Shown: positions 3,170 through 55,236 of the stretch, piece after piece
Layout: each line of letters starts with the position of its first letter
Numbering within the stretch: position 1 is the first letter of the stretch
Source: an uncultured Planctomycetota bacterium
Lineage (GTDB): Bacteria > Planctomycetota > Planctomycetia > Isosphaerales > Isosphaeraceae
Assembly (NCBI GenBank): GCA_963823665.1
Contig: CAWGMQ010000006.1
Span: 320,001-384,000 of the forward strand
Length of the DNA: 64,000 bases
Direction: 5' to 3'
The notes under the pieces: model-generated
Told to the model about the DNA's origin: nothing
The model's database searches: none
The model's input: the letters and a program-made list of their open reading frames with translations, nothing else
Made by a program: the position numbers and the translations under genes

Positions 3170-3205
3170 TTGCCTCGTCTGCGCATACGTTACATACTTT
3201 ATAAT
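3170..3205 (+). promoter_or_regulatory. Candidate sigma70 promoter of the lipase-CHAT-PLD gene
   Basis: TTGCCT(3170)-17 nt-CATACT(3193), plus TATAAT at 3200-3205, in a short AT-rich patch ~45 nt before ATG 3250. Confidence 0.4.
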
Positions 3206-3249
3206 CGATAAGGTTGCTCTATGTCCCACTGGGAGCGAGCGCCGTGACG

Positions 3250-6200
3250 ATGGACGAACGCGAGCTTGTTCGCGGCTTGAATGCGGCACGCACGCCGCAA
3301 CAGCTCGCAGACGTGCTGAAGAACCCCGGCCCCGACGAGGAGCGCGCGCTCCGAGCATTCCTCGGCGAAGCGAAGTTCGAGCGCCTGAGCTCGCTCGCGT
3401 ACTCGCTGAACGTGGTTCGGGGGGACGGTCCGACCGCGCCGGAGCGGAACGTAGTCGTACTACCGGGGATCATGGGGAGCGAGCTGACTGTCCTGGAGCG
3501 GGGGTGCGTATCGTTTAACCTCTGGCTCGACCTGGTGCGTATCGGGATCCAGGGCTTGGACAAGCTCAAGCTCGAGGAAAACGCGTTCGCGACCGCGGAG
3601 CCGCCGTACTCGATTGTCGCGAGCGGTCTGCTGATCAAGTACTACGGCGAGATCTTGCTGAAGCTCGGCGCGCATTGGAACGTCCGCGCCTTCCCATACG
3701 ACTGGCGGTTGGACCTCGATACGCAGGCGGCGAATTTGCTGGCATTCATTCGACTTGAGTTTGCGGGCAGGCCGGTCTCGATCGTGGCGCACTCGATGGG
3801 CGGCCTCCTCTCACGGGCCTTGATGCGGCTCGGTCCGAAGGCCGACTCCGGCGAATCGCTGGTCCGAAGGCTGGTGATGCTGGGGACGCCCAACTTCGGG
3901 TCATACGAGGTCCCGCAAATTCTCGCCGGCATCCAGGGCACGGTGAGGAAACTGATCCGCCTGACGCATCCCATCCTGTCAGTCTGGGACAGCAATCAGG
4001 CCCGACTGCGCATCCTCCAGATCCTCAGCACGTTTCCGGGCGTCTACCAGATGCTCCCGCGCAAGGGAATCGGGGCCGAGAGCCTGCAAAGATCCGAGGT
4101 TTTCCGCACGGTCAATCCGTATGCCACGCAGTCGCACATCAATCGAGGTGTGGGGTTCCTCGACTCGCTGGGGGCGGTCGTCGATCCCGAGCGGATGACG
4201 TACATCGCCGGCTACGGCTTCGAGACGATCGTCGGGTTCGACGCGAGCCTGCCGCTGGACCGGTTGAGCAGCTACTGGTCGAGCAAGGCGGGCGACGGAA
4301 CGGTTCCGCACGAGCTGGGGCTCCTCAAGGGCGTTCAAGCGTACTACGCCCCCGTCCAGCACGGCGACCTTGCCTCGGACGACGGCGTGATCGCGGCCGT
4401 CGACGAGATCCTGGACACGGGCAAGACCAAGGCTCTGTTGAAGGAGATCGTCTCCGATCAAACGCTCGAGCGGCCGACCCGTCGCGCCGTCGAAGACGAT
4501 CGGGAGTTTGCCGAGGGCGCACGCGGAGCTCGTCGAGTGGTCGCGGGCCGATCGGGGCGGATCCTCGCACATCATCGACCCGCAGGAATCCCGGCTAGCC
4601 GACGAAGTGCTTGCGGGTTGGGTGTCGGACGGCACGTCCTGGGCTCGGATGAGGAAGGACAGCGTCCAGGCGGGCGGCCTGGCCGGGGTGGTGCCTGGGC
4701 GGGTCGCCGGCTCTGCGCTTGCGCCGGTAAGAATACGCCTTAGGATTGTTCCCGGCAACATCGCCCATTGCCATGACCCGGCTGCGGTCGAGGATCGCCG
4801 GGCGGTCGACGATGTCGTCCCGATTGACGCAGTTGCTGTGGGGATCTACGAGAACGAGCGCCGGGCCTGGGGAGCGATTCAGGAGATCGACAAGTCGATC
4901 GACCCAGGTGCGCGGCCGGAGAACGGTTTGGGCGTGCTCTCGAGCTTGATCGCCCGGGGGATGGTGAGGGGGGAGCTGGGAATCCCGACACTGATCCCGG
5001 ATCCGCGCCCGCAGGGGTCGGCACCCCGCGGATCCCGGCACATCGTGCTGGTGGGCATGGGTATCGTCGGCCGTTTCGGCGCATCGGAGGCGCGGCGGAC
5101 TGCCCGCGAGACTGCATGGTACCTCGGCCGCGTCGGCAAGAAGCACTGGGCGACGCTCTTGATCGGAGCGGGGAGCGGCAACTTGAGCTCGCAGGTCGGG
5201 ATCCGCGAGACACTGAGCGGAATCGCTCGTGCCGTCAGCGAGGCCCGGTCGAGCGTTCCGCCGGCACCCATCTCGAGGTCGTCTCGATTGTCGAGCTGTA
5301 CGAGGACCGGATCCGCGATCAGCACAACGCGATCGTGGAAATGCTGAGCTCCTGGACGAAGACGGGTGCGCTCGATGACTACGGCGTCGAATTCGACTAC
5401 GAAAAGCCGACTGAGGCCCAATTGGAGGCGCACGACGAAGCCGGGATCCAGCGTCTCTGCGAGCTGGAGCGGAAGCGGATCGCGGATCGTGCGGCGACCG
5501 GGTACTCGCGAGATGCGAGCAATCCGCAGCCGACGCGGATCAGCGTCGAGCAGGTCGAGGGTTCGTTCTGGTTCAGCGCCCTGACAGAGACAGCCTCGAT
5601 CCCGCAGCGGCAGGTCGAGATCGACCCGTTGATCGTCGCGGAGCAGAACGACCTGGTGGTCGCGGCGGCGACGATGGCGGACCAGAAGAAGGCAGGGCGG
5701 ATCCTCGGCCACGAGCTGCTGCCGGCCGACTTCCGGACGCTGTTCGCATCGGGGGCACGCGTGGTGCTGGACGTCGACGCAGACATGGCGCGAATCCCCT
5801 GGGAGCTGATCGTCGTCGAGACCAGCTCGAAGCGTGACGACGACGACGACGCGTCGCGAGCTGACGACGACAACGTCGTCCTGGCCCTGGATCGGGGGTT
5901 CACGCGTCAGTTGCGCACGAAGTTCGCCGCTCCCCCCGAGCCGATGCCCACCGCGGGCCGGCTCCTCCGGGCCCTCGTGGTCGCGGACCCTGCACCCGAT
6001 GCGCCGCTCGCCGGCGCGAGGCGTTCGAGATCGTCCAGATTTTCGAGGCCTTCAACAAGCTGGGAACGGGCGACGCGGTCTCGGTCACGGCGCTGATCGG
6101 CCCCAGCGTGGCGACGAGGTCCCGGGTCCTGGGCGAGCTGCTCGACGGCTGGTACGACATCCTGCACTTCTCCGGGCACTGCTTCTTCGACCCGGCCGCG

Positions 6201-8474
6201 CCGCTGGCCTGCGGCTGGCTGTTTGCCAAGGGCAGGACGGTCGCCGATCGCCGCGTGCTCGCGGCTCGGGAGCTGCGCCGCGTCGATCGGCTGCCCAGGT
6301 TCGTCTTCTCCAACGCCTGTGAATCCGGCGTGATGCCCGGCCGCCCCGAGGGGCGTTCCAGTGGCCTGGCGCCGGCGTTTGCCGAGACATTCTTCGAACG
6401 AGGCGTCAGCAATTTCATCTGCACGGGCTGGCCGGTGGGCGATGGCGCCGCCCGGCAGTTTGCCCGGGTTTTCTACGGCGCCATGCTCGGGCTTGACCTC
6501 ACCGAAGAAAAAGGACGGTTGGTCGCGATGCGGGCGATCACCGGGCCGACGGACCTGGCCGAGGCGCTCCGCCGGGCGCGGGCGGAGGTCCAGAAGATGC
6601 GCGGCGGTCTACGGACCTGGGGCGCCTATCAACACTACGGAAATCCCTTCTCGCGATTCCTCGTGTGGTCCGCAGACGATGCAGCGGCGACGACAGCGAG
6701 CGCCGGCGGCTCGGCACCTTCGCCTTCGCCGCTCGGGCAAACCACCGGCCCTCTCGCGCCGGCGGGAGGAGGGGCGACATCGCTGCCGCCGGGCTCACGA
6801 GCCTCGTTCGCGCAGGTCCAGGACGTCCTCAGGCGACACGGAGATGAGCTCCATCGAATTCCCGGGGTTGTGGACGTCCGGCCGGGTTACCGGTTCCTGG
6901 ACAACTGGATCACGAACGAACCAGCGGTGGTGGTGGTGTTCGATGGAATGCCCGCGGCGGGGGCGATTCCGCCCGAGGTGGACGGTGTCCCGATCGACGT
7001 TGCTCCGGCCGACCCGTTCGAGCAGGTGGGCGGGGACGTCGAGCTCAGATCAATCTCCCCCGGCATCGAGCCCCAGCGTTTTCTGCTTCCGGGCGAAACT
7101 CCGACCATCGAGGAGGAGCGTGCCCTTACCGCGTACGAGGCGCCTCCGCACGCGACGCTCGACGAGGTAGTGGACGAAATGGTCGTGACCTGCCATGTGA
7201 GCCCGGACTGCGGCTGGTCCGTGCTAAGCGAGTTCCTTTCCGACGTTTCGAAGAGCTTGACGGTCGCGATGTACGACTTCACGGCCCCGCACGTGCGCGA
7301 CGCTGTGCGGGCGGCTGTCAAGCCGAGGCCCCGGTCGCTCAAGCTCGTCCTCGACCCCAAGCTCGCGCTCTCTGACGGCGGCAGCGACGATAACCCCAAG
7401 GCGGAAGACCTCCCCGAGGACGAAGTCGTTGACAGCCTGAAGCGGGCCGCCGGCACGCGTTTCGACTTCGTCTGGGCAGCCGTCTCGCTCCGGGGGAAGG
7501 TCCATGACGGGATCTTCCCGAAGGCGTATCACATCAAGGTTGCCGTGCGCGACGGCTCGAGCTTCTGGCTGTCGAGCGGCAACTGGCAGTCGTCGAATCA
7601 GCCGCCGGAGGAAGTCGTGCCGGCTGCCTCCGACGCTGGGTTCGACCTCAGGGCCGTCCTTGCGAAGTACAACCGGGAATGGCACGCGGTGGTCGAGCAC
7701 GAGGGGCTCTCGCAAGTCTTCGAGGAGTTCATCTCGTGGGATTTCGACCAGGCCAAACCGCTCCAAGACGTGGAGGACCGCGGGCTCGAGGCCGTGCGGC
7801 TTCCCGACCTGCTCGTCCCGATTGCGGAGGAGGTCGAGCGGAAGATCACCGACGCGGAGCGCCAGAAGCCGCTTCAGGTTGCGGGCAAGGTCAAGATCCA
7901 GCCCGTCCTTACCCCGGACAACTACCCGGACGTCGTCGAGCGGCTGATCCGGGAGGCGAGGAAATCAATCCGCTTTCAGAACCAGTACATCAACATCGCC
8001 GAGACGATTCCTGATGGGTTCGACCGCTTGCTCAAAGCGCTCAAGGAGAAGTGCGAGGACCCGGCGGTGGAAGTCCGGATCATCCTCCGCTCGATCGGCA
8101 ACGTCCGGAAGATGGTCGAGGCGCTCAAGGCGTACGGATTCGACGTCGCGAATCGCGACCTGTTCCGACTTCAGGCGGCGACGCACACGAAGGGGATTGT
8201 CGTGGACGACGCCCGGGTGCTGATCGGCAGCCACAACTGGTCGGGCCCCGGTACGACCCGGAATCGGGACGCCTCGCTGAAGTTCGACCACGCCGGGATC
8301 GCGAAATACTACGCTGCAGTCTTCGACCACGACTGGAAGAACCTGGCCAAGGCGCGGGTCCCGGGCCCGGGCGACATGCCCCGCGTCGCGCGCCCGACCC
8401 GCGACGCCACCACGCCGCCCGGCTTCGCCCGGATCCCGTGGGGCGCCTACTTCGAGGACGTGGACGACCTCTGA
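3250..8474 (+). CDS. Multidomain protein: LCAT/PGAP1-like alpha/beta lipase - M17-N/macro-like domain - CHAT caspase-like protease - Nal1-N-like small domain - phospholipase D (2 HKD); 3 frameshifts
   Basis: Lipase motifs LPGIMGS, AHSMGG, GDGTVP, HGDL. CHAT motifs IPWELI, LVVADP, HFSGH, FSNACESG, WGAYQHYG. PLD motifs YHIKVAVRD..SSGNW and HTKGIVVD..GSHNW. ORFs 3214, 4508, 5116 and 6108 join into one reading through shifts at ~4512, ~5258 and ~6018. Confidence 0.8.
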
Positions 8475-16165: not shown

Positions 16166-16813
16166 ATGAGCGGCGAGCGGACGGTAGACTCCCACGGACC
16201 AAGCGACCGGACGACGGCCCTGATGGGGCTGATCCAGCGGATCAAGCAGGGCGATCAGCAGGCGGTGAACGAGCTGATCGCGCTGGCTTACAATCGCATC
16301 CGCAAGGTTTCGGCCAAGATCCTGCACTCATCGAGCTTCGATGCCGTCACGCCGAAGCTCTACCAGACCGAGGACGTGGCCCAAGAGGCCTCGGTCCGCC
16401 TGATTGCAAGGCTTCGCAAGGTCCCCGTGGAGGACGTCGATCACCTGTTCGGATTGACTGGCATGATCGTCCGGCGCTACCTGCTCGACCTGGTGAGACG
16501 GGGCTCGATTGCCAACCTTAACTCCCAGGACCAAGCGGGTCTGGTTGCCCCTGATGGAGGGGGGACGTCGTCGTTCGAGGGGGCCCAGAAGATGGTTGCC
16601 GTGCTGGAAGGCATCGAGGCGCTCCCGGAGAAGCTGCGTCAAGTCGCCGACCGGATCCTCACCCTTGGCCTGTCTCAGGACGAGATCGCCGAGCAGATGG
16701 GCGTGAAGAGGGAGACGATCAAGAGGCAATGGCAGAGGGCCCGTATCCGTCTGGCGCAAGCCCTCCGGCCGAACTCGACCGGGCCCGAAGCCGGCCCGAC
16801 AGGTACTCCTTGA
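16166..16813 (+). CDS. ECF-type sigma-70 factor (planctomycete kinase-associated type)
   Basis: GDQQAVNELI, QTEDVAQEA (sigma2), LPEKLRQV..GLSQDEIAEQMGV..TIKRQWQRARIRL (sigma4). Its stop abuts the kinase ATG. Confidence 0.9.
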   Translation: MSGERTVDSHGPSDRTTALMGLIQRIKQGDQQAVNELIALAYNRIRKVSAKILHSSSFDAVTPKLYQTEDVAQEASVRLIARLRKVPVEDVDHLFGLTGMIVRRYLLDLVRRGSIANLNSQDQAGLVAPDGGGTSSFEGAQKMVAVLEGIEALPEKLRQVADRILTLGLSQDEIAEQMGVKRETIKRQWQRARIRLAQALRPNSTGPEAGPTGTP

Positions 16814-19800
16814 ATGATCGACCACGCGCGGTTGGAAGACCTGCTCGAACGGTGTCTAGAACTCCTCGACGACGGGATCGAACCGACTCGGCATGTGGTC
16901 GACGTAGCGCTCACCCCGGAGGAGTGGGATGAGCTCGCGCCGCGGCTCGCCGCCCTTAGACATGTGAACGACGGAGCGGCGGCACTGAACCCGTTCCACG
17001 CGGGCAACGCGGACAGGCGGCCCGCCCGTCCGGCGGCCCCGGCCTGGCATCAGGGGGACGAGCCGATTAGGGGCTATACCGTCCAGGAAGATGCGCCCAG
17101 GTCCCGTGGTGGCTCGGGGGAAGTTTGGTTGGCGAAGACCTCGGGGGGAGTTCGGGCCGCCCTGAAGCGCGTCCGTCTCGATCCGAACCGCCCCCTGGGA
17201 CAGCGCGAACTCGAGTCGCTCGAGCACGTCGAGACTTTGCGCCACGCCCACCTGCTGCCGATCCTGGCTTGGAAACACGATGGGGACGACGACGGCCGCG
17301 GTGGGGAGCTGGTCATTGCCATGGAGTGGGCCGACGAAGACCTGGAATCATATCGTTTGCGGCATGGCAGGGTTCCGGTCGATGAGCTCCTCAGGTTCAT
17401 GCAGGAAATCGCCGAGGGGCTCGATTATCTGAGGGCGAGCATGTCGGGCTGCGACAAGCGTGGTGTTGGCATCCACGGCGACGTCAAGCCGAGGAACCTG
17501 ATGATGGTCAACAATTCCATCAAGGTGGGGGACTTCGGTCTGGCCAGGGTCGTCACTCGCGGCTCAGCCGAGAGCGGCCCTTCGGCCATGACGCGGCGTT
17601 ACGCGGCCCCGGAGTGGTACCTGGGCCAGGAGTCGCCGCTCGCCGACCAGTACAGCCTGGGTCTCTCTTACTACGAGCTGAGGACAGGCCGTCACCCGTT
17701 CGATGAGTATAATGAGCAGATCCGCGCGGGGCTGATCTGCAGGAGATCCTTCAGGGCGCACGTCCAGACCAATTGCCCTCGCCGAAGGCAGAGGGTCTTT
17801 CCTTGTTGCGGGAGCCCGAGCGCATGGCGCTGGCCCGCGCCCTGGCCACAGGACCGGAAGAGCGTTACGCGACCTGCTGCGATTTTGTCCACGCGCTGCA
17901 AGACGCATGCAAGTCACCTTACGTTGCCCATACCCACACGCAACTGCCCTGCAACCTGCCGCTGGCCTCCATCGGCATGCTCTTCAAAGGGCGGGAGGCA
18001 TTCCTCGGCGAACTGCGAACCAGGTTCGGCACACCTGACGGCCGGGCGACGGCGATCGTGAACCGGCTGGCCGTGCACGGCCTCGGGGGCGTGGGCAAGA
18101 CGCGAACCGCGATCGAGTATGCCTGGCAACATGCCGATGAGTATACGGCCCTGCTGTTCGTTTCCGCTCCCTCCGCCGCCGAGCTCCGCGCCAACCTGGC
18201 CAACCTGGTCGAGGTGCTGGGGACGACTGCCGAAGGGACGTCAGTCGACCACCAACTCGCGGATGTCCTCAACTGGCTCGGCACCCATCCTGGCTGGCTG
18301 CTGATCATAGACAGCGTCGACACCGACGCGGCAGCGAGCGAGACCGAACGGCTGCTGGCGCAGCTCCGTGCTGGGCACGTGCTGATCACCTCGCGGATCG
18401 CCAACTGGAGTGCGGCGGTCGAGCCCTTGGAGCTAGACCTCCTGGCCCCGACCGAGGCGGTGGCCTTCCTGCTGGAGCGGACGCCACACCGCCTCCAGGC
18501 AGCCGACGATGCGGCTCGGGCCGGTGCCATCGCCCGCGAGTTGGACGGGTTGGTCTTGGCGTTGGAGCAGGCTGGGGCTTACATCGACACGCTACGGCTC
18601 TCATTCGCGGAGTATCTCCAGCGCTGGGAGGCCAAGCGGCACGAGGCGCTCAAGTGGCACGACCCGCGGCTGATGCAGTGTCCGGCCAGCGTGGCGGCGA
18701 CCTGGGAGACAACCTTCGCCCAGTTGGCCGAACCGGAGCAACGGCTGCTGGAAGTGCTGGCCTGGCTGGCACCGGAGCCGATCCCGCTCTTTCTCTTCGA
18801 GGCCGCGCCGCTCTTGGCGGCGATCCCCGACCCGCGCCAATCGCTCGCGGGCCTCGCGGGCTACTCCCTGGCACGATTCGATGCGGCGGGCGACGCGGTC
18901 CTGGTCCATCGGCTGGTGCAGGAGATCGGGCGGCGGCGACAGGCCCCAGCCGATCCCAAGGCGGGACTGAGGCTCGCCCTGAACTCAGTGGATGCGGTCG
19001 CGGTAGACAACCCGGAAGACATTCGGACCTGGCCCATCTGGAACCCGCTGGCACCACACGCGGCAGCAGTCACTCGACATGCGGATGCTGTGGGCCTCGT
19101 CGATCCGACCGTGCGGCTCATGATTCTACTGGGCACGTACCTGACTTTTCGCGGGCAGTTCTCCCGAGCAGAGCCACTGTCTCGCCGCGCCCTCGCCATC
19201 GCCGAGGACCGTTACGGCTCCGACCATCACAACGTCGCCGCCGCCCTCAACAACCTGGCGATTTTGCTCCGGGAGACCAACCGGCTGGGCGAGGCCGAGC
19301 CGCTCTGCCGCCGCGCCCTGGCGATTCGGGAGCGAAGTCTCGGCCCCGACCATCCAGCCGTCGCCACCGCTCTCAACAACTTGGCGATTTTGCTCAAGGA
19401 CACCAACCGGCTGGGCGAGGCCGAGCCGCACTTCCGCCGTGCCCTGGCGATTGGGGAGCAAAGCCTTGGCCCCGCCCATCCCGAGGTCGCCCACGCTCTC
19501 AATAGCCTGGCGATTTTGCTCCGGGACACCAACCGGCTGGGCGAGGCCGAGCCGCTCTTCCGCCGCGCCCTGGCGATCGCCGAGCACAGCTATGGCCCCA
19601 ACCATCCTACCGTCGCCATGCAACTCAACAACCTGGCGAATTTGCTTCGGGAAGCGAACCGGCCAGGCGAGGTCGAGCCGCTCCACCGCCGCGCCCTGAC
19701 CATTCTCGAGCACAGCTACGGCCCCGACCATCCAATGGTCGCCAGAGCTCTCAAAAGCCTGGTGAATTTGCTTCGGGAGACCAACCGGCCGGGCGAGGCG

Positions 19801-21126
19801 GAGCCGCTCTGCCGCCGCGCCCTGGCGATCGCCGAGCACAGCTACGGTCCCAACCATCCCGAGGTCGCCAGCGCTCTCAACGACTTGGCGACTTTGCTCC
19901 TGGAGACCAACCGGCCGGGCGAGGCGGAGCCGCTCTACCGACGTGCCATGACCATCGCCCTGGACGAGCCATGGCCCCGCTCATCCCAAGTTCGCCACCG
20001 CTGTCTACAACCTGGGGGCTTTCCTTCAACACACCAACCGGCTGGATGACGTGGAGCTGCTCTACCTCAACGCGCTCGATATCTGGGAGCGAAGTCTCGG
20101 CCCCGACCATCCCAAGGTCGCCACCGCCCTCAACAGCCTTGCGAATTTGCTCGGGGACACCAACCGGCTGAGCGAGGCGGAGCCGCTCTACCGCCGGGCC
20201 CTGGCGATTGCCGAGCACAGCTACGGACCCGACCATTCCGAGGTCGCGATAAAACTCCACAACCTGGCGCTGATGCTCAGGAAGACCAACCGGCTGAGCG
20301 AGGCCGAGCTGCTCTGCCGTCGTGCCCTGGCGATTCGGGAGCAAAGCCTTGGCCCGGACCATCCCGAGGTCGCCGCCTCCCTCAACAGCCTTGCGAATTT
20401 GCTCGGGGACACCAATCGGCCGAGCGAGGCGGAGCCGCTGTACCGCCGCGCCGTGGCGATTGCCGAGCACAGCTACGGCCCCGACCATCCCGAGGTTGCT
20501 TTCCCACTGAACAACCTGGCGCTGCTGCTCCGGCAGACCAACCGGCTGAGCGAGGCCGAGCTGCTCTGCCGCCGTGCCTTGGCGATTCGGGAGCAAAGCC
20601 TTGGCCCGGACCATCCCAAGGTCGCCGCCGCTCTCAGCAACCTGGCGGGGTTGCTGATGGCCACGAACCGGCCGGCCGAGGCCGAGCCACTGTACCGTCG
20701 GTCGCTGGCGATCGACGAGCGGTCCTATGGTCCCGAACACGAGAAAGTCTTCCACGACCTCAACAACCTAGCGGGACTGCTGCGGGAAACCAAGCGGTTG
20801 GCTGAGGCTGAGCCTCTGTATCGGCGGGCATTGGCAATCTGGCGGAGAACCGCCTCGGTCCCGACCAGCCAACCGTGGCCACCTCCCTCAACAACCTAGC
20901 GGGATTGCTGCGGGACACCAACCGGCAGGGCGAGGCCGAGCCGTTGTATCGGCGCCAGATGGAAATCTTCCGCATGTTCACCGAGGCGATCGGCCACGGG
21001 CATCCCCACCACCACGCCTCCATTGGAAACGACATCAGCCTGCTCGATGCCATGGGCCGGACACCCGACTAGATCGAGCAAGGGGTCCACGAGTTGATCG
21101 GCCCAGCGGATTCTGAGGGCTCCTGA
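16814..21126 (+). CDS. Ser/Thr kinase - NB-ARC (STAND) NTPase - TPR fusion (NLR-like); 3 frameshifts and a late in-frame TAG
   Basis: Kinase motifs GGSGEVW, AALK, HGDVKPRN, DFG, YAAPE. NB-ARC motifs GLGGVGKT, WLLIIDSVD, VLITSR, GLVLALEQAGAYI, VHRLVQ. About 15 42-aa TPRs follow. Shifts at ~17730 (G run), ~19960 (C run) and ~20840; TAG at 21070 with the frame open to TGA 21126. Confidence 0.82.
19110..21000 (+). repeat. ~15 tandem 126-bp coding repeats (42-aa TPR)
   Basis: ACCAACCGG...GAGGCCGAGCCGCTC recurs every 126 bp. Confidence 0.9.
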
Positions 21127-38497: not shown

Positions 38498-38700
38498 TTG
38501 GGAACAAATTGGGAACAGTATTGGCAACGTCAGCCCCATGCGGCCACAATGCGAAAACACCAAGGTGGCGACGTGCGAGCCTTGGATTTGCAGACTTTAA
38601 GCACCACCGCAACGTGTTTCCAATACCACGACTATGGCAGAAGTCCCGGACTCAAAATCCGGTCCCCGCAAGGGGCGTGGTTTCTAATCCGACGGTCGGT
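38498..38700 (+). repeat. att-like unit 3: TTGG(G/C)AAC x3 plus degenerate tRNA-Leu(CAA) extending through the variable and T arms
   Basis: Repeats at 38498, 38509 and 38521; ATGGCAGAAGTCCCGGACTCAAAATCCGGTCCCCGCAAGGGGCGTGGTTTCTAATCCGACGGTCGGT at 38634-38700. Confidence 0.78.
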
Positions 38701-40067
38701 TCGAGTGGGAGATTCGACGAGGGTTCGCAGTTCGCGAACGCACGCAAGGCTTGCATCACTTCGGGACGGATGACGATCGAGGGGCGAGCTTCGCGCAGTA
38801 TTGCGACGGCCTCGTCGATCGTGCCGGCCTGTCCGCTGGCAAGGAGGTAGGCCCCGACGACAGCGGCGCTGCGCGAGTAACCGATCTTGCAATGCACGTA
38901 CACAGTGCCACTCGCCGATTCCTCGGCGATGAATGTTGTCGCTTCGTGTAACTGGTCCTGCGTCGGAGCTGTCAGATCGAGGATTGGAAGGTTCCGATAC
39001 CTCGTGTCACGGAAAGCCGCCGGCTCCGAGAATTCCGCCGTCAAGTCCAGCACGGCCGTCACGCCCTGCTTCTTGGCCTCGGTGGCCTCCGATTCGGAGA
39101 GGGTGCGACCGATCACGATCGCCGGCACCACTTCGTCCCATGCGTGGCATTGACCGCGATAGTAGATGAGCGACAGGTACTGCCCGGTCAAGATCGGAGC
39201 CAGCACGAACCGCGTGCTCCAGGGCAGCCGGCCGTCGGCTTTGCGGAAGATCCCCGGTCCGAATCCGAAATAGGCGCCGGCAGTTATCCCCAGCCCGGCC
39301 GCCGGCCAAAGCAGGAACGCGCCCCAGAGGCCAAGCGCGTTCGCCAGCATCAGCACCAACACGGCTCCCGTGGTGTAGTAGCAGCCGACCCGGACGTTCG
39401 GCGTCACGGGGCAGCGCGAGTCTGATTCTCGGAAAACGTAGAATGCGAATCCGGCCAGAATCAATCCGCCCGCAATGTCCACCACATGGTGCTGCCAGGT
39501 CAACAGCGTGGCAATACCGATCAAGATAAACCATGTGCACAATAGAGCCCGGACGATCCCGCGCGAATGGCGGGCGTAAATGTCGGCCACGATCAGGCAC
39601 AGCACGATATGCAGCGACGGAAACAGGTTGTGCGGGTATTCCATCAGGAACGGCGCCGTGCATGACTGCTCGACGAAGTCCCCGAACCATCCGCCGACGG
39701 AGGGCCGCGCGGGCCAGTGCAGCTTCAGCGGCATTAGCAGGAAGAAGGCCGCAGCCACCGTGATCGAGAACACCACCCGCTGCGCGAAGGTACGTAGCTC
39801 CCGTTCGTTCCGGCACAGGAACGTGGCCATGAAGAAGAAGGCGTCCATTGACATGTACGGCACGATCAAGAGCGGCGCGTAGGGGATGACCGTCAACTCC
39901 CAGGCGAAATACCACGTTTGCACGTTCGCGACGGGATGATGAGCGGTAAGCCAATTCGTGGCGCCGTAGACGACCACGAAAAGCAAGGATAGAAGCACCG
40001 ACGTTCCGGCGGCCCGAAGGATCAGGATCCGACTCGGCGGGCGGCCGACACCGTGAATATGCCACAC
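38652..40067 (-). CDS. ynbD: PAP2-like membrane domain + dual-specificity phosphatase (YnbD-like)
   Basis: NLFPSLHI, LLTWQHHVVDIAGG, VLDLTAEF, VYVHCKIGYSRS. Start uncertain. Confidence 0.85.
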   Translation of the reverse strand: MWHIHGVGRPPSRILILRAAGTSVLLSLLFVVVYGATNWLTAHHPVANVQTWYFAWELTVIPYAPLLIVPYMSMDAFFFMATFLCRNERELRTFAQRVVFSITVAAAFFLLMPLKLHWPARPSVGGWFGDFVEQSCTAPFLMEYPHNLFPSLHIVLCLIVADIYARHSRGIVRALLCTWFILIGIATLLTWQHHVVDIAGGLILAGFAFYVFRESDSRCPVTPNVRVGCYYTTGAVLVLMLANALGLWGAFLLWPAAGLGITAGAYFGFGPGIFRKADGRLPWSTRFVLAPILTGQYLSLIYYRGQCHAWDEVVPAIVIGRTLSESEATEAKKQGVTAVLDLTAEFSEPAAFRDTRYRNLPILDLTAPTQDQLHEATTFIAEESASGTVYVHCKIGYSRSAAVVGAYLLASGQAGTIDEAVAILREARPSIVIRPEVMQALRAFANCEPSSNLPLEPTVGLETTPLAGTGF

Positions 40068-41784
40068 GGGTCGATCTCCTGTGAAATCTTTTCGAAGCCA
40101 GCGTTTCGGACCAGTTCGTCCATTTCCGCCTGCGTGCGGCGGCGCATGATCCACGGTTGGCCCTCGCGGTTGGCCAGCACCCGCGCGATGAACTCGACCT
40201 GAGGATGCCACGGCTGATTGGTGTAAATCAGATGCCCACCCGGCTCGACGGCGTCGGCCAATCCTCGCAGCGAACGGACCACGGGTCCGTTGTCCGGAAA
40301 GAGTTCATACAGGCCAGAGGCAATGGCAATCGTGGGCCGCGGCGTGATCTTTGCCAACCGGGCCCGATCAAAGGCATCGGCGTGGGCCAACGTAACCTGT
40401 GTCAGACCGAGCTCGTCCCGCAGTCGGGCGGCGGCATCCAGGTTCTCCTGCTTGTAGTCGCGCAGGACGGCCGAAATGGGAATCGGGCGTAGCGTGTGGA
40501 TCGTCTCGAGAACGTATCGGCCCGGCCCGGAAGCAATGTCGAGCAGTCGCACCGGACGGCCCGCGGCGTGAGTCTGTTCGATGAGCGAGCGCAGCGTCTG
40601 TTCCAGCAGCGTCCGACGGACGCGAATGCCGCGCCAGCCGATGGCATTGAGAAACGCGCGGTCGATGAGACGACCCAGCGGCGTCAGGCCTTGGGCGCGG
40701 TTCTGGTAGATGTAATCGAGCATGATGCCGGAATCGAAGCCGTGCTTCCAGCCGAGGTCGATGCCGCGGCTGAGCCGGCCTGGCCCCTTCATCAGCCAGC
40801 GCACGGCGGCGAACCGGAGACCGCCCGGCCGCTGCAGGCGCTGGTACTCGCCGTGCGTGAAGCCATGCCGATCGGCATCGACGAGCGACGGTGGCGACGG
40901 AGGTTCGCGCGAAGCGCTCGCCGATCCAGTCGCGCACCTTCTCGACAACGAGGCGCCGATCCCTCTCGTGAAAGATCGCGTGGGAGAACCCGGTCAGCAC
41001 CTCGAAGCGCTTGACCGCGGAGGAGGCGCGATCGACAAACTGCCGCTGGGCCCTTTCATGCACGACCCAGTCCGAACTCGCGGCGAGCACGAGCAACGGC
41101 ACATTCATGGCGCCTGCGTCGTCCAGTAGCCGCGTCGAGGTATCGTGCAGGTCGAGGAGCATGTTCACCGCGATCTGCCGAAAGATCAGCGGGTCGGCGT
41201 TATAGTGCGCAGCCTGTTCCGGGTCGTGGGTGACCATGGTCGCTTTGACGAAGCTCTTGACGTATCCGGGACCGAACAATCGCTGCCGCAACCGGAGGAG
41301 CGGTACGGCAAACGGCACGTACAGCTTCACGCGGAAGGCCGGCGTGGCAAGGATCAACCCGCCTACCGGCGGCGCGTAGTCATGGACCCATGCTGTCGCG
41401 ATCACGGCGCCCAAGCTGTGAGCGAGTACCACCGTGCCGGGCAGCTCGATTCCAAACGTTGTGCAGAGGTGGTGCACCCATTCATCGACATCGCGGATCA
41501 CGGTCGCCAGGTCCGGCGCCGTTACCGCGCTCACCGGAGGAAAGACCGTGTCCGCGCTGGTCCCAGGCGAAAACAGAAAAATCGTCCAATCCCAGCGCAC
41601 GAACGGTCTCTTGCCAGCGGCGCGAGTGTTCGTGGCCACGGTGAAACAAGAGCAGGGCTTTGCTGGTTGGCTCCTCGGGCAGCCAGGCGCGGTAAAACAG
41701 CTCGGCCCCGTCGCGCAGCGTTAACGTGTGCTCGGTTGGATCGAGCACGGCCGGCGGGCGGATTCGTTCCTGTGTAGCGAGCAT
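40022..41784 (-). CDS. ynbC: Bifunctional alpha/beta hydrolase / class I SAM methyltransferase (YnbC-like); 2 frameshifts
   Basis: LFHRGHEHS, FAWDQRGHG, AHSLG, GFDSGIMLDYIY, LLDIASGPGRY, YTNQPWHPQ, MRRRTQAEMD. Shifts at ~41520 and ~40910. Confidence 0.85.
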
Positions 41785-41796
41785 ATGAAATTTTCC

Positions 41797-42213
41797 TTAT
41801 TTCACATGAGGAGTTTCTCGTTGCCATTCTTTCGCCCACACATATGCAATCGTCAACAGGGCGCAGACGATGTGAAAGTAGCGTGCGCCGGCAATATCGT
41901 ACGGCGAGAGCGTCGGCTCAACTTTATCGCGAACGAGCGTGATCTCAGCGGCGCTCGACCCGGTGGACGGGTAATCCTTGAAGGCCGCCCGGATGGCCTC
42001 ACGCTCGAGGGCGGTCGCCTCGATGGCTCCCTCGTTCTTGAATGCGAAGCACGCAAACAAGATGGTGATCAGGACGGTCGTCACGAATTCCCGGCGCTGC
42101 CGGAACGTCGAGAATCCGACGATGCCGCCGATCACGAGGACGTAAATCGTCCAGTACCATTGCAAAGCCACCGAGCGTTCGAAGTACGCCTGGATCAATT
42201 GGCTGTAGTTCAT
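41797..42213 (-). CDS. Hypothetical membrane protein (3 TM)
   Basis: GGAGG RBS, three hydrophobic segments, located inside the operon. Confidence 0.8.
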   Translation of the reverse strand: MNYSQLIQAYFERSVALQWYWTIYVLVIGGIVGFSTFRQRREFVTTVLITILFACFAFKNEGAIEATALEREAIRAAFKDYPSTGSSAAEITLVRDKVEPTLSPYDIAGARYFHIVCALLTIAYVWAKEWQRETPHVK

Positions 42214-42311
42214 GGGACCTCCTGGTTACGGACCGGTTTCGACACGATTTCCTCAAGCACGAACGCCAGGGCCTCTTTCGATCCTTCCTTCGATGACTTT
42301 CTCAGGCCGGG

Positions 42312-43046
42312 TCACGCGGCTGGCTCAGCGTGCCCGAGGGACATCACGGCGTCGCGCAACTCGCGGCAGATATGCGTCCTTGATTCCTTGGTGGGCTTCA
42401 GGTGCGCATAGACGCGCGGCGCGCCAATCGTCAGTCGGACCGCCTTGGGCCGGGGAAACCACGCGCCCTTCGGCAGGGCGGAATGCGTGCCGGCCAGGTG
42501 ACACGGGATGACGGGAATATCGCGGTCCGCCGCCAGGAAGGCGACGCCCGGCTTGAAATCGCCAGGCTCGAAGCCGTCGGTGCGCGTCCCCTCGGGGAAC
42601 AGGATCAGAATGGTGCCCGGCTTCTCTTCCAGTAGCTGGGCGCACTCTCTCAAACTTTGCCAGCAAGCGAACTGTCGATCGAACGGCAACACGTTGACGA
42701 TCAGCTTGGCGAGGAAGGACAACACAGGATTCACGCAAAAGTACTCTGACGCGGCGACCGGAAACGTCCGGTGCAACTGGCGGACGGGCAGCGCCGACAA
42801 CAGGCAGAGCGTATCGAGGTGACTGGCATGATTCGCGACCAGAATAAGCGAGCGATCCGCCGGCAGGTTCTGGCGGCCGACGATCGTGAGCCTGTTGTAG
42901 CCGTGCAGCCAGGCGCGCATCACCACCGCCGCCAGCGAGCGCACCCCACGGACCAGCACACCTGGCTCGTGCCAGAAGTCTCGCAGGGCATGCCCTCGCG
43001 CCGAATCGACGCCGTCCGCCAATTCAAGTAATAGCTGTTCCATCAC
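42312..43046 (-). CDS. Lysophospholipid acyltransferase (PlsC-like)
   Basis: ANHASHLD, FPEGTR, FKPG motifs. Confidence 0.9.
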   Translation of the reverse strand: MMEQLLLELADGVDSARGHALRDFWHEPGVLVRGVRSLAAVVMRAWLHGYNRLTIVGRQNLPADRSLILVANHASHLDTLCLLSALPVRQLHRTFPVAASEYFCVNPVLSFLAKLIVNVLPFDRQFACWQSLRECAQLLEEKPGTILILFPEGTRTDGFEPGDFKPGVAFLAADRDIPVIPCHLAGTHSALPKGAWFPRPKAVRLTIGAPRVYAHLKPTKESRTHICRELRDAVMSLGHAEPAA

Positions 43047-43098
43047 CCGTTCATTTCAATTTTCGCTTTCACAGCTTGATTCCAACTCGCCGCGAATA

Positions 43099-44055
43099 TC
43101 ACGCCGACGGACTGAGATCGTGGTAATAGCGCACGTAATGGAAGAATAAGGGCGCCACATAGATCAAGCTGTCGATGCGATCCAGGACGCCACCGTGGCC
43201 TGGAATCAGCCTCCCCATATCTTTGATCCCCAGGTCACGCTTGAAGACGCTGACGACGAGGTCTCCTAACTGCCCCCCGACGCCGACGATCAAGCCGGCG
43301 AGGAGACAGTCCCACTTGTTGAAATCCGGGAAAGTGGGGAGCAATATCCAAGGCAGGAGGAGTGAAACCGCCAATCCACCGGCGGCGCCTTCCCAGGTTT
43401 TCTTCGGGCTGATGTTGCTGCGGAGGGGGTGCCGGCCGAACAACTTGCCGAAGGCATAGGCGGCAATGTCATTCAACTCAACAGCGAGTACCAGATAGCC
43501 CAGGTAACTGTAGGCGTGGGCGGAATTGGCCAGAAACGACACGTGCCCGAACATCCAGCCGAAATAGACGAAGCCGACGATGGCCAGGGCGAGCAACGGA
43601 AGCTGGCCCTGGCCTCGGTTGCGAACGACCGGTATCACCAGGATTGCGGCGATCACGAACACGGGCAGTGCCATGAACAGAGCGTACCAGCCCGGTTTGC
43701 CGTCGGATGGATCGCTCATCCAGCAGACGACGCCGATGGCGATGATTCCCGAATAGACCGTGGCGGTGATGATCCGATCGTGGTACAGCGCGGTGGCGCG
43801 GGCAAACTCTCGGAAACCAAAAATAGCCACGACGGTCAGGAAGACGATGGCGGCTTCGCGCCCGAGAAAAAAGCCGAGGATGAGCAGCGGCACCATGAAA
43901 AGCCAGCCGCAGTACGCTTTCCAGGCATGCCCAACGTTGGCACGTAAGCCCCATTTCAGCACTGCGAGGATGAGGCCGCCACCAATGATCAACCCGGCGG
44001 CCAGCGCCAGGTAGAACCGAAAAACTGGACTTTGACCCGCCAGAATGGGCGACAT
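43099..44055 (-). CDS. ynbB: Phosphatidate cytidylyltransferase (YnbB/CdsA-like)
   Basis: ISPKKTWEG, GDLVVSVFKRDLGIKDMG, IPGHGGVLDRIDS. Confidence 0.9.
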   Translation of the reverse strand: MSPILAGQSPVFRFYLALAAGLIIGGGLILAVLKWGLRANVGHAWKAYCGWLFMVPLLILGFFLGREAAIVFLTVVAIFGFREFARATALYHDRIITATVYSGIIAIGVVCWMSDPSDGKPGWYALFMALPVFVIAAILVIPVVRNRGQGQLPLLALAIVGFVYFGWMFGHVSFLANSAHAYSYLGYLVLAVELNDIAAYAFGKLFGRHPLRSNISPKKTWEGAAGGLAVSLLLPWILLPTFPDFNKWDCLLAGLIVGVGGQLGDLVVSVFKRDLGIKDMGRLIPGHGGVLDRIDSLIYVAPLFFHYVRYYHDLSPSA

Positions 44056-53132: not shown

Positions 53133-54961
53133 CTATCTTGCCCAAGCGTACGCTTCAACGCGCGGGTCGGCACCGGCACTGAGGACGCCTGACTTTGGAT
53201 CAATGGCGATGGCCGCGTTCGAACCTAACGACCATGCGCCTGCTGATTGCAATTTGTGACCCTTGGCCTGGAGCGCTTTCTGGACTGCATTCGGAATACG
53301 GGACTCGACGGACAAGTCTCCGGGGTGGCTCATGTTGTGCGGAAACACCGAAGACGCGAAACCGCGCGTCGACCACCGCGGAGCTTCGATCGCCTGCTGA
53401 ACGTTCATGCCGAAGTCGATCATGTTCATGAGCGTCTGGACGGTCCGCTGAATCTGATCGTCACCGCCGGGGCTGCCAGTGATCAACCAGGGTTGGCCGT
53501 CCTTGAGCACCAGCGTGCTCTGCAACGTGCTACGCGGGCGTTTGCCTGGTTCGAGTGAACGCGGCTCACCCGGCGTGAGCGAATAGTAGTCGCCGCGGCA
53601 GTTGAAGATGAAGCCCAGATCGGCCATCACGACGCCTGTGCCGAACCCGCTGTGGAGGCTGGGTTCAAAACTCACCATGTTGTGGTCCTTGTCGATCACA
53701 GCGATATAGCTGGTGTCTCCTTCCGAATAATCGGCCTCACCCACGTGCGAGTGTCCAATGCGGGCAGGTGCTGCCGCCACTTTCATGAACTGCTCGGGGT
53801 TGCCGGGCCGGATTTCGAGCGAAGCGCGATTGGGATCGAGGAGCTTACGGCGTTCGGTCGCGTAGGTCTTGGACAGCAGGCCCTCGTAAGGGATTCGCAC
53901 GAAGTCGGTGTCGCCCAGCTTCTCGCGATCGGCAAAAGCGAGCTTCAGTGCTTCGGCACTCGTGTGGATGTATTCCGAGCTGTTGTGCCCCAGCTTCTTA
54001 ACGTCATAGCCCTCCAGAATGTTCAACAGGAACAGCTCAGCGGGACCCTGGGACGAGGATGGATTCTTGTGGACTTCGTAGCCGCGATAGTTCGTCGACA
54101 CCGGTGTTTCAACCTTGGCGGTATACGCCGCGAAATCCTCATACCGATAAAGGCCACCGTTCTGTTCGGAGAACTCCCCCATGGTTCTGGCGATGTCGCC
54201 TTTATAGAAGCGATCGCGCGCGCGCGCAGCGCCGCGCGCCGACCTAGTCCCGCCGCAGCTTGCTCGGCTTCGACCAGCTTCCGAAGCATCCTAGCGGAAT
54301 CGACGTTGCGAAAGATGTCGCCGGGGTGCGGGGCCTTGCCATTCGGAAAATACAGCTTCTTGGAGGTTGGATATTTCTGGATCTTTTTCGAGTTGGAGAT
54401 CGCACGCGCCAAACCATCGCCAATCGGGAAGCCGTTTTCGGCCACGTCGATTGCTTGCTCCAGCACCTGGGCAAAGGTCATGGTGCCCCAGCGATCGAGC
54501 AGTACATACCACGCATCGATAACGCCGGGCAGCGACGCGGAAAGCAGTCCGTCACTGTTGGGAATCTTGCCGCCGTTGTTCTTGTTGTACCAATCGATCG
54601 TGGCCAGCTTTGGTGCGGTTCCCTCGGCATTGATCGAGTACACCCGTTTCTCGCCTGCGTGGTAGACCAGAATGACCGCGTCGGCGCCGAAGCCATTGGA
54701 CTCAGGATTGACCAGCGCCAGCACGGCTTGCCCGGCCACAATGGCGTCGAACGCGTTGCCACCGGATTCCAGAATTCGCGCGGCGGCTCGAGTTGCCTCC
54801 TGTTTCATCGACGAAGCGGCATACTGCGTGCCCCGCACGACCGGCCGATACGTTCGGCTAGAAGTCGTCGAGCCGTCGGATTTTTCCTGAGCGTTCAATT
54901 GGGATGCGACCAACAGGTTCAGCAGTAATGCACCTAGAAGACAAATCGGCAATCGTCGCAT
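53133..54961 (-). CDS. ggt: Gamma-glutamyltransferase family protein with signal peptide; 1 frameshift at ~54220
   Basis: GGNAFDA, INAEGTAP, GDTSYIAVID (Thr nucleophile), PGKRPRSTL, GSPGG, GADPR. The shift lies in a (CG)n run. Confidence 0.9.
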
Positions 54962-55236
54962 GGCATGACTCCAGGCCGGCGGGGGTGTTATGGTCGACGG
55001 AGTGAAAGGCGCTCTCCGGGCCGTTTTGATTCGCGCGAGTATGAGCACGTCGCGACGGTCGGTCAAGAAACGCCAGGTACTTTCGCAATCGCTTGCGGTT
55101 CATCCGTCCATCCTATCGGGTGCCGGAGTGCGCGTCGGTGTCGTGGGACCGAAGTGCGCAGGCATGTGCCGCACAACGATTGTAATTTGCTGATCTTTCG
55201 GGCGCCGTGGGCTATCCGGCACCATGCCGCCACCTG

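Follow-up and report, generated by a model that had tools for sequence, protein, structure and literature searches.

Among protease-activated bacterial defence effectors the gasdermin is often replaced by phospholipase or endonuclease proteins, and some effectors are fused to trypsin-like proteases, in the part of the report drawn on here (PMC10312443). In the sections used of a second source, the Macro domain of type II Thoeris senses His-ADPR, SAVED-CHAT processes PCaspase, which is itself a caspase-like protease, and caspase-like proteases serve as promiscuous executioners both in type IV Thoeris and as PCaspase (10.1101/2024.10.24.620036). The gene considered here brings parts of this kind into one chain. 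It lies at positions 3250-8474, on the forward strand, of a 64,000-nucleotide stretch of DNA from an uncultured Planctomycetota bacterium (contig CAWGMQ010000006.1, positions 320,001 to 384,000), the whole of which is called the window below. The original prediction, made from the letters alone, was that four overlapping open reading frames (ORFs) join through three frameshifts into a protein of ~1740 amino acids with lipase, CHAT protease and phospholipase D (PLD) parts, a zymogen in which the protease releases one or two membrane-degrading enzymes. It is one gene, and it encodes lipase, macro, CHAT and PLD parts in a single chain. The larger proposal has it encoding a cytoplasmic protein of ~1,741 amino acids, with frame breaks that are probably assembly errors, that is likely a self-contained conflict (cell-suicide or defence) protein; to that whole we give an even chance.

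How is it known that four ORFs, filling positions 3205-8474 of the forward strand, are one gene? Third-position GC marks the coding frame in GC-rich DNA, and here it runs in frame 1 to ~4450-4500, in frame 2 to ~5200, in frame 1 again to ~6015 and in frame 0 to the stop codon, with its switches coinciding with the ORF overlaps. In the first frame Pfam recognises an alpha/beta hydrolase of LCAT type and, in the last, CHAT followed by two PLDc_2 stretches, with no match on the two middle frames. What joins the pieces is an intact 1,740-amino-acid metagenome homologue, P0121, which was found by searching longer proteins with the PLD part, carries LCAT, DUF7379, CHAT and PLDc_2, and in tblastn spans all four frames end to end at 73-78% identity with no gap in coverage (Table). 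Read through, the gene has ~1,741 codons, and the predicted joining into a protein of ~1740 residues has held up. The search for intact homologues of the same architecture that had been proposed with it finds them: at E <= 1e-20 the whole of P0121 brings up 103 proteins, of which ten clusters (P0121 counted) cover >= 99% of it at 39-100% identity, and the PLD-part search adds two further full-length clusters, P0164 and P0166, with the same four Pfam domains. The intact relatives with the same chain belong to other soil microbes. In genomes from the taxonomic family to which the window's genome belongs, lipase, middle part and CHAT stand in a single frame of 1,206, 1,286 and 1,188 amino acids (L011-L013), and these proteins stop after CHAT, without PLD.

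The catalytic sets, said in the original prediction to be intact, are so. All the quoted motifs are present, and in an alignment of the catalytic columns with 16 rows (the window protein, its breaks filled with X, together with 12 full-length proteins and three relatives) the lipase Ser, Asp and His and the CHAT His and Cys are conserved in 16/16 rows and both HxK motifs in 13/13. The absence of a signal peptide was likewise borne out, within the reach of a simple Kyte-Doolittle scan (no dedicated predictor was run) in which the maximum mean over 19-residue stretches is 1.31 and the N-terminus is polar, with neither signal peptide nor membrane helix.

And the frameshifts? There are three breaks of one base each, every one of them a single base in a short G or C run. 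The public runs that contain parts of the stretch are soil metagenomes (0.16, 0.12 and 0.06 of sampled words), and no RNA run is among those listed for it. A contig from one of the runs (X2, record 11; 220 nucleotides, depth 4.5) spans 5166-5384 and so the second break; its only differences from the window are an A>G change at 5266 and one more C after that, and by turning CCC into CCCC it restores the frame exactly as in P0121, with the substitution synonymous in that reading (GCA to GCG, Ala kept). Outside the gene the evidence on assembly indels consists of split genes only, among them a gamma-glutamyltranspeptidase gene (ggt) lying over two overlapping frames and a kinase-TPR gene over three. 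The TPR array of the latter crosses from frame 1 into frame 2 at ~19956-19991, and the gene probably has two more frame breaks; it is preceded by an extracytoplasmic function (ECF) sigma factor gene at 16166-16813, and intact kinase-TPR genes of 1,251-1,300 amino acids lie at 23065, 27821 and 34153. Since break 2 disappears in the X2 contig and other genes of the window are split likewise, the breaks are read as assembly errors, which we regard as highly probable. Of the earlier claim of three frameshifts there thus remain three single-base breaks, which with that contig and the split ggt gene in view are most likely no feature of the gene. Two points pull the other way: among the public-run contigs placed on the stretch none covers break 1 or break 3 (one identical to the window at 4583-4810 lies downstream of break 1), and the X2 contig, as it carries a substitution, comes from another strain and is no proof of an intact frame in the window's own cell.

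It is possible to imagine instead that the three indels exist in the organism and that the gene is dead. Three indels within 1.5 kb of one gene would suit a pseudogene, conflict genes are frequently lost, the sole contig that covers a break is from a slightly different strain, and a relative's lipase-macro-CHAT copy (L015 3147-6770, on G011:C2) changes frame too (3, 2, 3), being either a broken gene or another assembly error. However, no piece has a stop codon in its correct frame, no catalytic residue has been lost, each piece is about as similar to P0121 as the next, within the identity range already given, and unrelated genes of the window, ggt among them, are split alike, with breaks that are single bases in short G/C runs. 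A dead gene is, in our judgement, unlikely. Far less probable still, to the point of being extremely improbable, is that programmed ribosomal frameshifting or other recoding joins the four frames. All that speaks for it is that four frames need joining, whereas a single open frame encodes each of the full-length homologues (P0121-P0166), as it does in each of the genes on L011, L012 and L013, the three sites need differing shifts (+1, -1, -1) and have no common motif, and the X2 contig has the base that abolishes break 2; the single-frame homologues together with the differing shifts rule out programmed frameshifting. Frame breaks in this assembly are best read as errors, which bears on other 'split genes' from the same genome.

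Table. Positions of the features discussed; unless a protein or locus is named, numbers refer to the window
Feature	Position	Strand	Details
Four overlapping ORFs	3214-4743, 4508-5347, 5116-6096, 6108-8474	+	frames 1, 2, 1, 0
P0121 aa 3-432	3241-4524	+	frame 1, 75% identity
P0121 aa 433-680	4526-5269	+	frame 2, 74% identity
P0121 aa 681-923	5269-6021	+	frame 1, 73% identity
P0121 aa 913-1740	5958-8471	+	frame 0, 78% identity
ATG start (3250) and polar N-terminal region, ~65 aa	3250..3447	+	aligns with P0121/P0122 and L011/L013 N-termini
LCAT-like alpha/beta-hydrolase (lipase) domain	3448..4524	+	frame 1; Pfam LCAT
Lipase motifs	Ser AHSMGG 3787-3804, Asp GDGTVP 4291-4308, His HGDL 4360-4371	+	
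Break 1: extra G in CGCGGAG	4524..4526	+	+1, near 4525; frame 1 to 2; P0121 aa 432 ends at 4524, aa 433 starts at 4526
Variable linker, then macro-fold (M17_N-like) domain	4526..5268	+	frame 2; core from ~4727 (VRIRLRIV)
Macro-fold motifs	DAVAVGIY 4826-4849, LVGMGIVGRFG 5048-5080, LLIGAGSGNL 5156-5185	+	
Break 2: C missing in C run (CCC)	5266..5269	+	-1; C run at 5267-5269; frame 2 to 1; P0121 aa 680/681 both at 5269
Macro-fold last strand and helix (HLEVVSIV 5269-5292), charged helical linker, N-terminal half of CHAT	5269..6018	+	frame 1; tblastn of P0121 and L011-L014 proteins, alignment A3
Break 3: one base missing	6016..6021	+	-1; frame 1 to 0; within conserved PL.GA..EA motif of CHAT; residues 985/986 of L011 homologue, 923/924 of P0121
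Catalytic half of CHAT caspase-like protease	6018..6660	+	frame 0; ends at YQHYGNP 6627-6647
CHAT dyad	His in HFSGH 6165-6179, Cys in NACES 6312-6326	+	
Low-complexity Ala/Gly/Pro/Ser/Thr linker, CHAT to PLD unit	6661..6830	+	sequence composition
NAL1_N-like small beta domain	6852..7010	+	IPGVVDVRPGYR 6858-6893, EVDGVPIDV 6975-7001
Dual-HKD two-lobed PLD-superfamily domain and stop TGA (8472-8474)	7011..8474	+	HKD 1 7527-7553, HKD 2 8181-8210
Convergent neighbour, 1,155 aa	8574-12041	-	10 IPT/TIG repeats (E 5e-121); no link seen to the lipase-CHAT-PLD gene
Split kinase-TPR gene, three frames	16814-20899 (16814-18061, 17716-20049, 19952-20899)	+	Pfam
Split ggt gene, two overlapping frames	53133-55066	-	Pfam profile 2-172 on 54023-55066, 189-510 on 53133-54182
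S8-ORF-PLD cassette	L167 4317-8536, L169 3320-7533, L171 3410-7527		rhizobial plasmids
Longer-subfamily example	L069 5513-12059	+	Mycolicibacterium senegalense

Taking the chain from its start, the N-terminal region is conserved in relatives, with P21, L39 and G44 invariant (alignment A2); it has no hydrophobic stretch and, from its residues, is probably helical. In the lipase that follows, Pfam LCAT (PF02450) reaches 33.9 bits against a cut-off of 21 (E 2.7e-8), a match to profile positions 86-183 of 392 only, and the nucleophile elbow HS(M/T)GG, the Asp of GD(G/D) and the His are kept in all 16 rows. The names that homologues carry at their sources are generic ('pimeloyl-ACP methyl ester carboxylesterase', 'CHAT domain-containing protein', 'hypothetical protein'); the first, a Joint Genome Institute (JGI) label, is taken as a generic alpha/beta-hydrolase name and not as a function.

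For the middle of the chain, where the macro domain of the window gene is itself interrupted by break 2, a homologue was modelled that is 39% identical to the window piece: L091:1736-2536, the first row of alignment A3, which holds 24 homologous stretches and two window pieces. The AlphaFold2 model (predicted local distance difference test, pLDDT, 92.1) finds in Foldseek the N-domains of M17 leucyl aminopeptidases at E 7e-9 and macrodomains (macroH2A, Af1521, PARP9/14) at E ~2e-7; in VIA-align, run against 48,161 chains, the N-domain of E. coli PepA scores Z 18.6 (172 residues aligned), and the macrodomains of PARP9 (17.4), PARP14 and Af1521, several of them solved with ADP-ribose, score Z ~17. 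Pfam M17_N is above its cut-off in P0373 (40.1 bits versus 23.4) and below it in L013 (21.3 bits). By this modelling the middle domain has the three-layer macro fold, which agrees with the earlier macro/M17-N-like call. That it might be the pseudo-caspase half of CHAT was also considered, and the fold search ruled it out. Its G-rich loops, AGMG..GRFG and LIG.G.GNL, are conserved in A3, and are suggestive, nothing firmer, of loops that bind an ADP-ribose-type ligand.

The protease itself is clear: on 5865-8474 Pfam CHAT (PF12770) scores 67.7 bits against a cut-off of 24 (E 1.5e-18), in P0121 it scores 79.1 bits over profile positions 22-289, and the H in H(F/Y)(S/A)GH and the C in NACESG are kept in every row of the 16. 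Between CHAT and the PLD unit the linker varies from one full-length homologue to another (12 compared, A2 consensus), and gap-free contigs identical to the window lie at 6490-6640 and 6743-6893. The linker is a candidate cleavage region.

In the PLD unit Pfam PLDc_2 (PF13091) matches two stretches at 76.5 bits against a cut-off of 27 (E 2.2e-21), and the motifs YHIKVAVRD and THTKGIVVDD are kept in each of the 13 rows. The AlphaFold2 model of the unit has pLDDT 89.2 and a predicted template modelling score (pTM) of 0.91, and in it the small domain at the front forms three strands and helices with block pLDDT 83-95. NAL1_N is the N-terminal domain of NAL1-type serine proteases. Pfam NAL1_N matches the equivalent stretch of relatives (P0131, P0044, P0129-P0144) with no match at E <= 0.01 in the window protein, which is not a NAL1-type serine protease, being without Nal1_C and having PLD lobes in its place. 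This small domain had been taken for a prodomain-like module. Stand-alone PLD proteins of ~560-640 amino acids cover 99% of the 540-residue unit, the NAL1_N-like domain included, and because they contain it the domain, a constant companion of this PLD, is assigned to the PLD unit and not to CHAT, so that the idea of a CHAT prodomain is dropped.

Which substrate would such a PLD have? Foldseek places the model about equally near to human PLD1/2, Streptomyces PLD, vaccinia F13 and the PLD3 exonuclease (E ~1e-16); the weak profile matches of the PLD half, at E 1e-5 to 7e-9, are to the nuclease-type HKD proteins DrmC, MkoB/MkoC, NucT and DpdK; and a sequence search of the PDB with the PLD part gave a 'Phospholipase' at E 6.7e-6 and a poxvirus nicking-joining enzyme at E 9.5e-4. 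With matches to both types of enzyme, the substrate may be lipid or nucleic acid. As to the 'membrane-degrading' enzymes of the original prediction, lipid-degrading activity is a reasonable expectation for the LCAT-like lipase, but for the PLD it is one possibility of two, its profile neighbours being of nuclease type and its fold as near to PLD3 exonuclease as to phospholipases.

The company kept by the PLD unit is peptidases. A hand count of the precomputed Pfam domains in the 120 long PLD-unit proteins listed gave Trypsin_2 in 69, CHAT in 14, Nal1_C in 8, Peptidase_C14 in 4, M36 in 3, S8 in 1, C25 in 1 and none in 20, i.e., 100/120 carry a peptidase domain from one of seven families; among the 20 others, 15 have a sub-threshold Nal1_C, one a weak CHAT/C25 and four nothing. 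The PLD may come before the protease (P0128, P0131) or after it (P0163 and the window gene). Plasmid records with the unit number 13, and in five of the six loci examined it is fused to annotated peptidase genes or on the same strand with them. Three rhizobial plasmids share a cassette of an S8 peptidase, an ORF of ~85 amino acids without a Pfam match and a stand-alone NAL1_N-PLD (Table), with a CHAT protein upstream of it in L169; in two plasmid loci a caspase gene is followed by a large trypsin-PLD fusion, and in one a shortened PLD sits between insertion sequence (IS) elements. The association of the PLD unit with peptidases is thus an observed one.

The macro-CHAT core has company of its own. 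Of 1.84 billion cluster representatives, 1,222 match the macro profile at E <= 0.001, with 302 of them reaching E <= 1e-30; the majority are 1,050-1,250 amino acids long with the domain at about residue 460-550, which is the lipase-macro-CHAT form. From 150 listed, 28 were chosen for unusual length or domain position, and 19 of these have CHAT, the other nine being short and without a Pfam match; modules added among the chosen proteins are Metallophos, an nSTAND1 NTPase, Peptidase_S8 (two) and Trypsin_2, and the macro-CHAT core occurs alone in proteins of ~600-740 amino acids (P0247, P0250). P0392, from the search with the whole of P0121, has LCAT, nSTAND1 and CHAT. In a protein of 972 amino acids (L014 6038-8953, reverse strand, on G011:C11) a bSEFIR/TIR domain (PADLOC bSEFIR E 6e-54) replaces the lipase and is followed by macro and CHAT; from that order it is possible that signal maker, sensor and protease are there in one chain. 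The ends of the core, then, are open to exchange among several modules: lipase, SEFIR/TIR, STAND NTPase, phosphoesterase, PLD, subtilase and trypsin.

Related loci in genomes, 74 in all, come from Planctomycetota (with the metagenome-assembled genomes L017, L020 and L023 among them), Acidobacteriota, Nitrospirota, Chloroflexota, Actinomycetota, Pseudomonadota and Bacteroidota. Lipase and CHAT are in one frame in 39, one (L017) is macro-CHAT-PLD, and 34 have the lipase match alone; 73 of the 74 have no separate PLD gene within 8 kb of the lipase-CHAT gene, and in 74 loci on metagenome contigs no PLD part is among the matches listed. In the window's own genome the macro profile matches no other gene. 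The G+C of the window gene is 0.666, versus 0.624 in the rest of the window, and this higher value and the sporadic spread across phyla would fit horizontal transfer. There is also a longer subfamily of 1,785-1,923 amino acids with DUF7379 hydrolase copies, LCAT-like lipase, CHAT and TPR-S, seen in L069 (Table) and also in L045, L046, L050, L051, L056, L065, L066, L075, L080, L120 and L148; in L069 and L080 a small Peptidase_C14 gene is immediately upstream on the same strand. Across the 27 lipase-CHAT loci scanned, such small caspase genes are near in four (L016, L020, L069, L080), TIR genes in two (L066, L080) and patatin-TPR-S and DUF4062 genes in one (L024), most neighbours being unrelated housekeeping genes. 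The lipase-CHAT gene of L011 adjoins a gene for a caspase protein of 756 amino acids.

How might such a chain work? In build the family resembles immune or cell-death proteins already known, with a sensor-like domain, a caspase-like protease and degradative enzymes. We propose that the ligand of the macro-fold domain would be a small molecule of nucleotide type, possibly derived from ADP-ribose, and that its binding would switch on the adjacent CHAT protease, which would then cut the flexible linkers, or partner proteins such as the neighbouring caspase of some relatives; once this has happened lipase and PLD would be released or become active, with destruction of membrane lipid and of lipid or nucleic acid and the killing of cell or invader. 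Gating of lipase and PLD by CHAT is suggested by comparative patterns. It fits because the PLD module is tied to proteases and because the macro-CHAT core has swappable enzyme modules; the predicted single-chain zymogen gains from this and from the conserved architecture, but CHAT could equally be an executioner.

That last is the main rival, in which the chain stays uncut and CHAT is a promiscuous killer beside lipase and PLD, the three being activated jointly, e.g., by a ligand of the macro-fold domain or by oligomerisation. Caspase-like executioners are on record in type IV Thoeris and as PCaspase, in the portion of the Thoeris source cited at the outset (10.1101/2024.10.24.620036). Macro-CHAT alone, at ~600-740 amino acids, means that CHAT can be the sole enzymatic module, and all three enzymes of the window chain retain their catalytic residues. 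However, the modules found C-terminal of CHAT include subtilase and trypsin-like proteases, which are usually zymogens activated by cleavage, and a PLD tied to seven peptidase families in either order, and in neighbouring genes as well, is easier to understand if PLD is a protease substrate. We hold the uncut, three-enzyme executioner to be doubtful, though a serious contender.

Against the conflict protein with its protease-gated enzymes stand several further findings. No TIR, STAND or caspase gene is beside the window gene, the neighbours being a beta-helix protein and the TIG-repeat protein on the opposite strand; PADLOC gives weak domain-level DrmC/MkoB matches to the PLD half and no system; and the alpha/beta hydrolase of a Mesorhizobium caspase/trypsin-PLD cluster has no homology to the window lipase (BLASTP E 0.74). 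The top structural match of the middle domain, at the Z of 18.6 given above, is the N-domain of an M17 aminopeptidase, a domain that to our knowledge is not known as a ligand sensor. So many lipase-only loci (34/74), with PLD in just 1/74, make the PLD an optional add-on, and among 401 sampled genomes of the phylum the PLD module at E <= 1e-20 is in the window's own alone and in none of the 400 others.

Could the protein act outside the cell that makes it? Toxins of the MARTX and large clostridial types carry within the chain a cysteine protease that responds to a small target-cell molecule by releasing the effector domains, and an exported multi-effector toxin that processes itself in that manner would share the outline of effector, ligand-binding or protease module, and effector. 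Secreted anti-cell toxins commonly contain lipase and PLD domains, and relatives of the PLD unit are on conjugative rhizobial plasmids. On the other side, the simple scan gave neither signal peptide nor membrane segment, among the Pfam matches to the gene and its neighbours no domain marks a secretion system, a C80-type protease is absent, and the family is fused to the intracellular immune-type modules nSTAND1 and bSEFIR. Export is very unlikely, and the protein is taken as cytoplasmic.

For the surroundings, the 28 window ORFs scanned hold no partner gene of the systems in PADLOC (DISARM, Mokosh, Thoeris, gasdermin, CBASS and others). Elsewhere in the window a run of lipid-related genes occupies 38652-44055 on the reverse strand: PAP2 and dual-specificity phosphatase, Methyltransf_20, Hydrolase_4, acyltransferase and CTP_transf_1.

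If the proposed gating is true, a single polypeptide would unite a sensor, a protease switch and two killing enzymes, and would be a compact object for studying the gating of bacterial caspase-like proteases. One PLD unit recurrently fused or adjacent to seven unrelated peptidase families points to a general rule not described before, that the PLD would be inactive until a protease acts. The wider generalisation is that macro-CHAT would be a ligand-gated switch reading a nucleotide-type alarm, and setting off whatever enzymes are attached at its ends, like Thoeris or CBASS in one protein, and that NAL1_N-PLD would be a widespread zymogen activated by proteases, which at least seven peptidase families would have recruited independently; this is possible and is offered tentatively. 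Full-text literature searches turned up no account of either a lipase-macro-CHAT-PLD protein or a protease-PLD rule, nor did term look-up in two comparative-genomic accounts of conflict systems, PMC7159879 and PMC8195603, in the passages that the terms reached. Other systems already show the components and the logic; this architecture was not found described.

How close, then, are those other systems? MARTX and large clostridial toxins also have several enzymes in one chain with an internal cysteine protease thought to free them, whereas here the protease is CHAT and not C80, there are no repeats, translocation region or export signal, and the family context is intracellular. DrmC of DISARM, MkoB/MkoC of Mokosh, DpdK and Nuc/NucT share HKD chemistry and provide the best, though weak, profiles for the PLD half, but the scores are far under the NCBIfam cut-offs (for DrmC, 32.8 versus 133 bits), the window protein has two HKD lobes and a NAL1_N-like domain, and the gene is without the partner genes of DISARM and Mokosh. 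Type II Thoeris, where a Macro-domain effector reads the signal made by TIR, likewise has a macro-fold domain adjoining an effector, and L014 has its SEFIR/TIR in the chain and two of the 27 loci have TIR neighbours; however, no TIR is in or beside the window gene, whose domain is as close to the N-domain of M17 aminopeptidases as to macrodomains. In SAVED-CHAT of type III-B CRISPR and TPR-CHAT/Csx29 of the type III-E Craspase, CHAT is idle until the adjoining sensor is signalled and then makes specific cuts, and the caspase-like protease partner of SAVED-CHAT, as it appears in the portion of the literature used, has a counterpart in the small caspase genes beside lipase-CHAT genes in 4/27 loci; the differences are a macro fold in place of SAVED or TPR, no CRISPR context, and enzymes for release that are in the same chain. 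The gasdermin and CARD-NLR-like operons of Wein et al., to the extent of the sections consulted (PMC10312443), are multi-gene, with an NLR-like ATPase and CARD-like domains, whereas here there is one chain with a macro fold and the scan of window ORFs has no ATPase, CARD or gasdermin gene near it; the two have in common a protease upstream of a killing effector, which in the present family is a PLD fused to trypsin-like, caspase-like and CHAT proteases.

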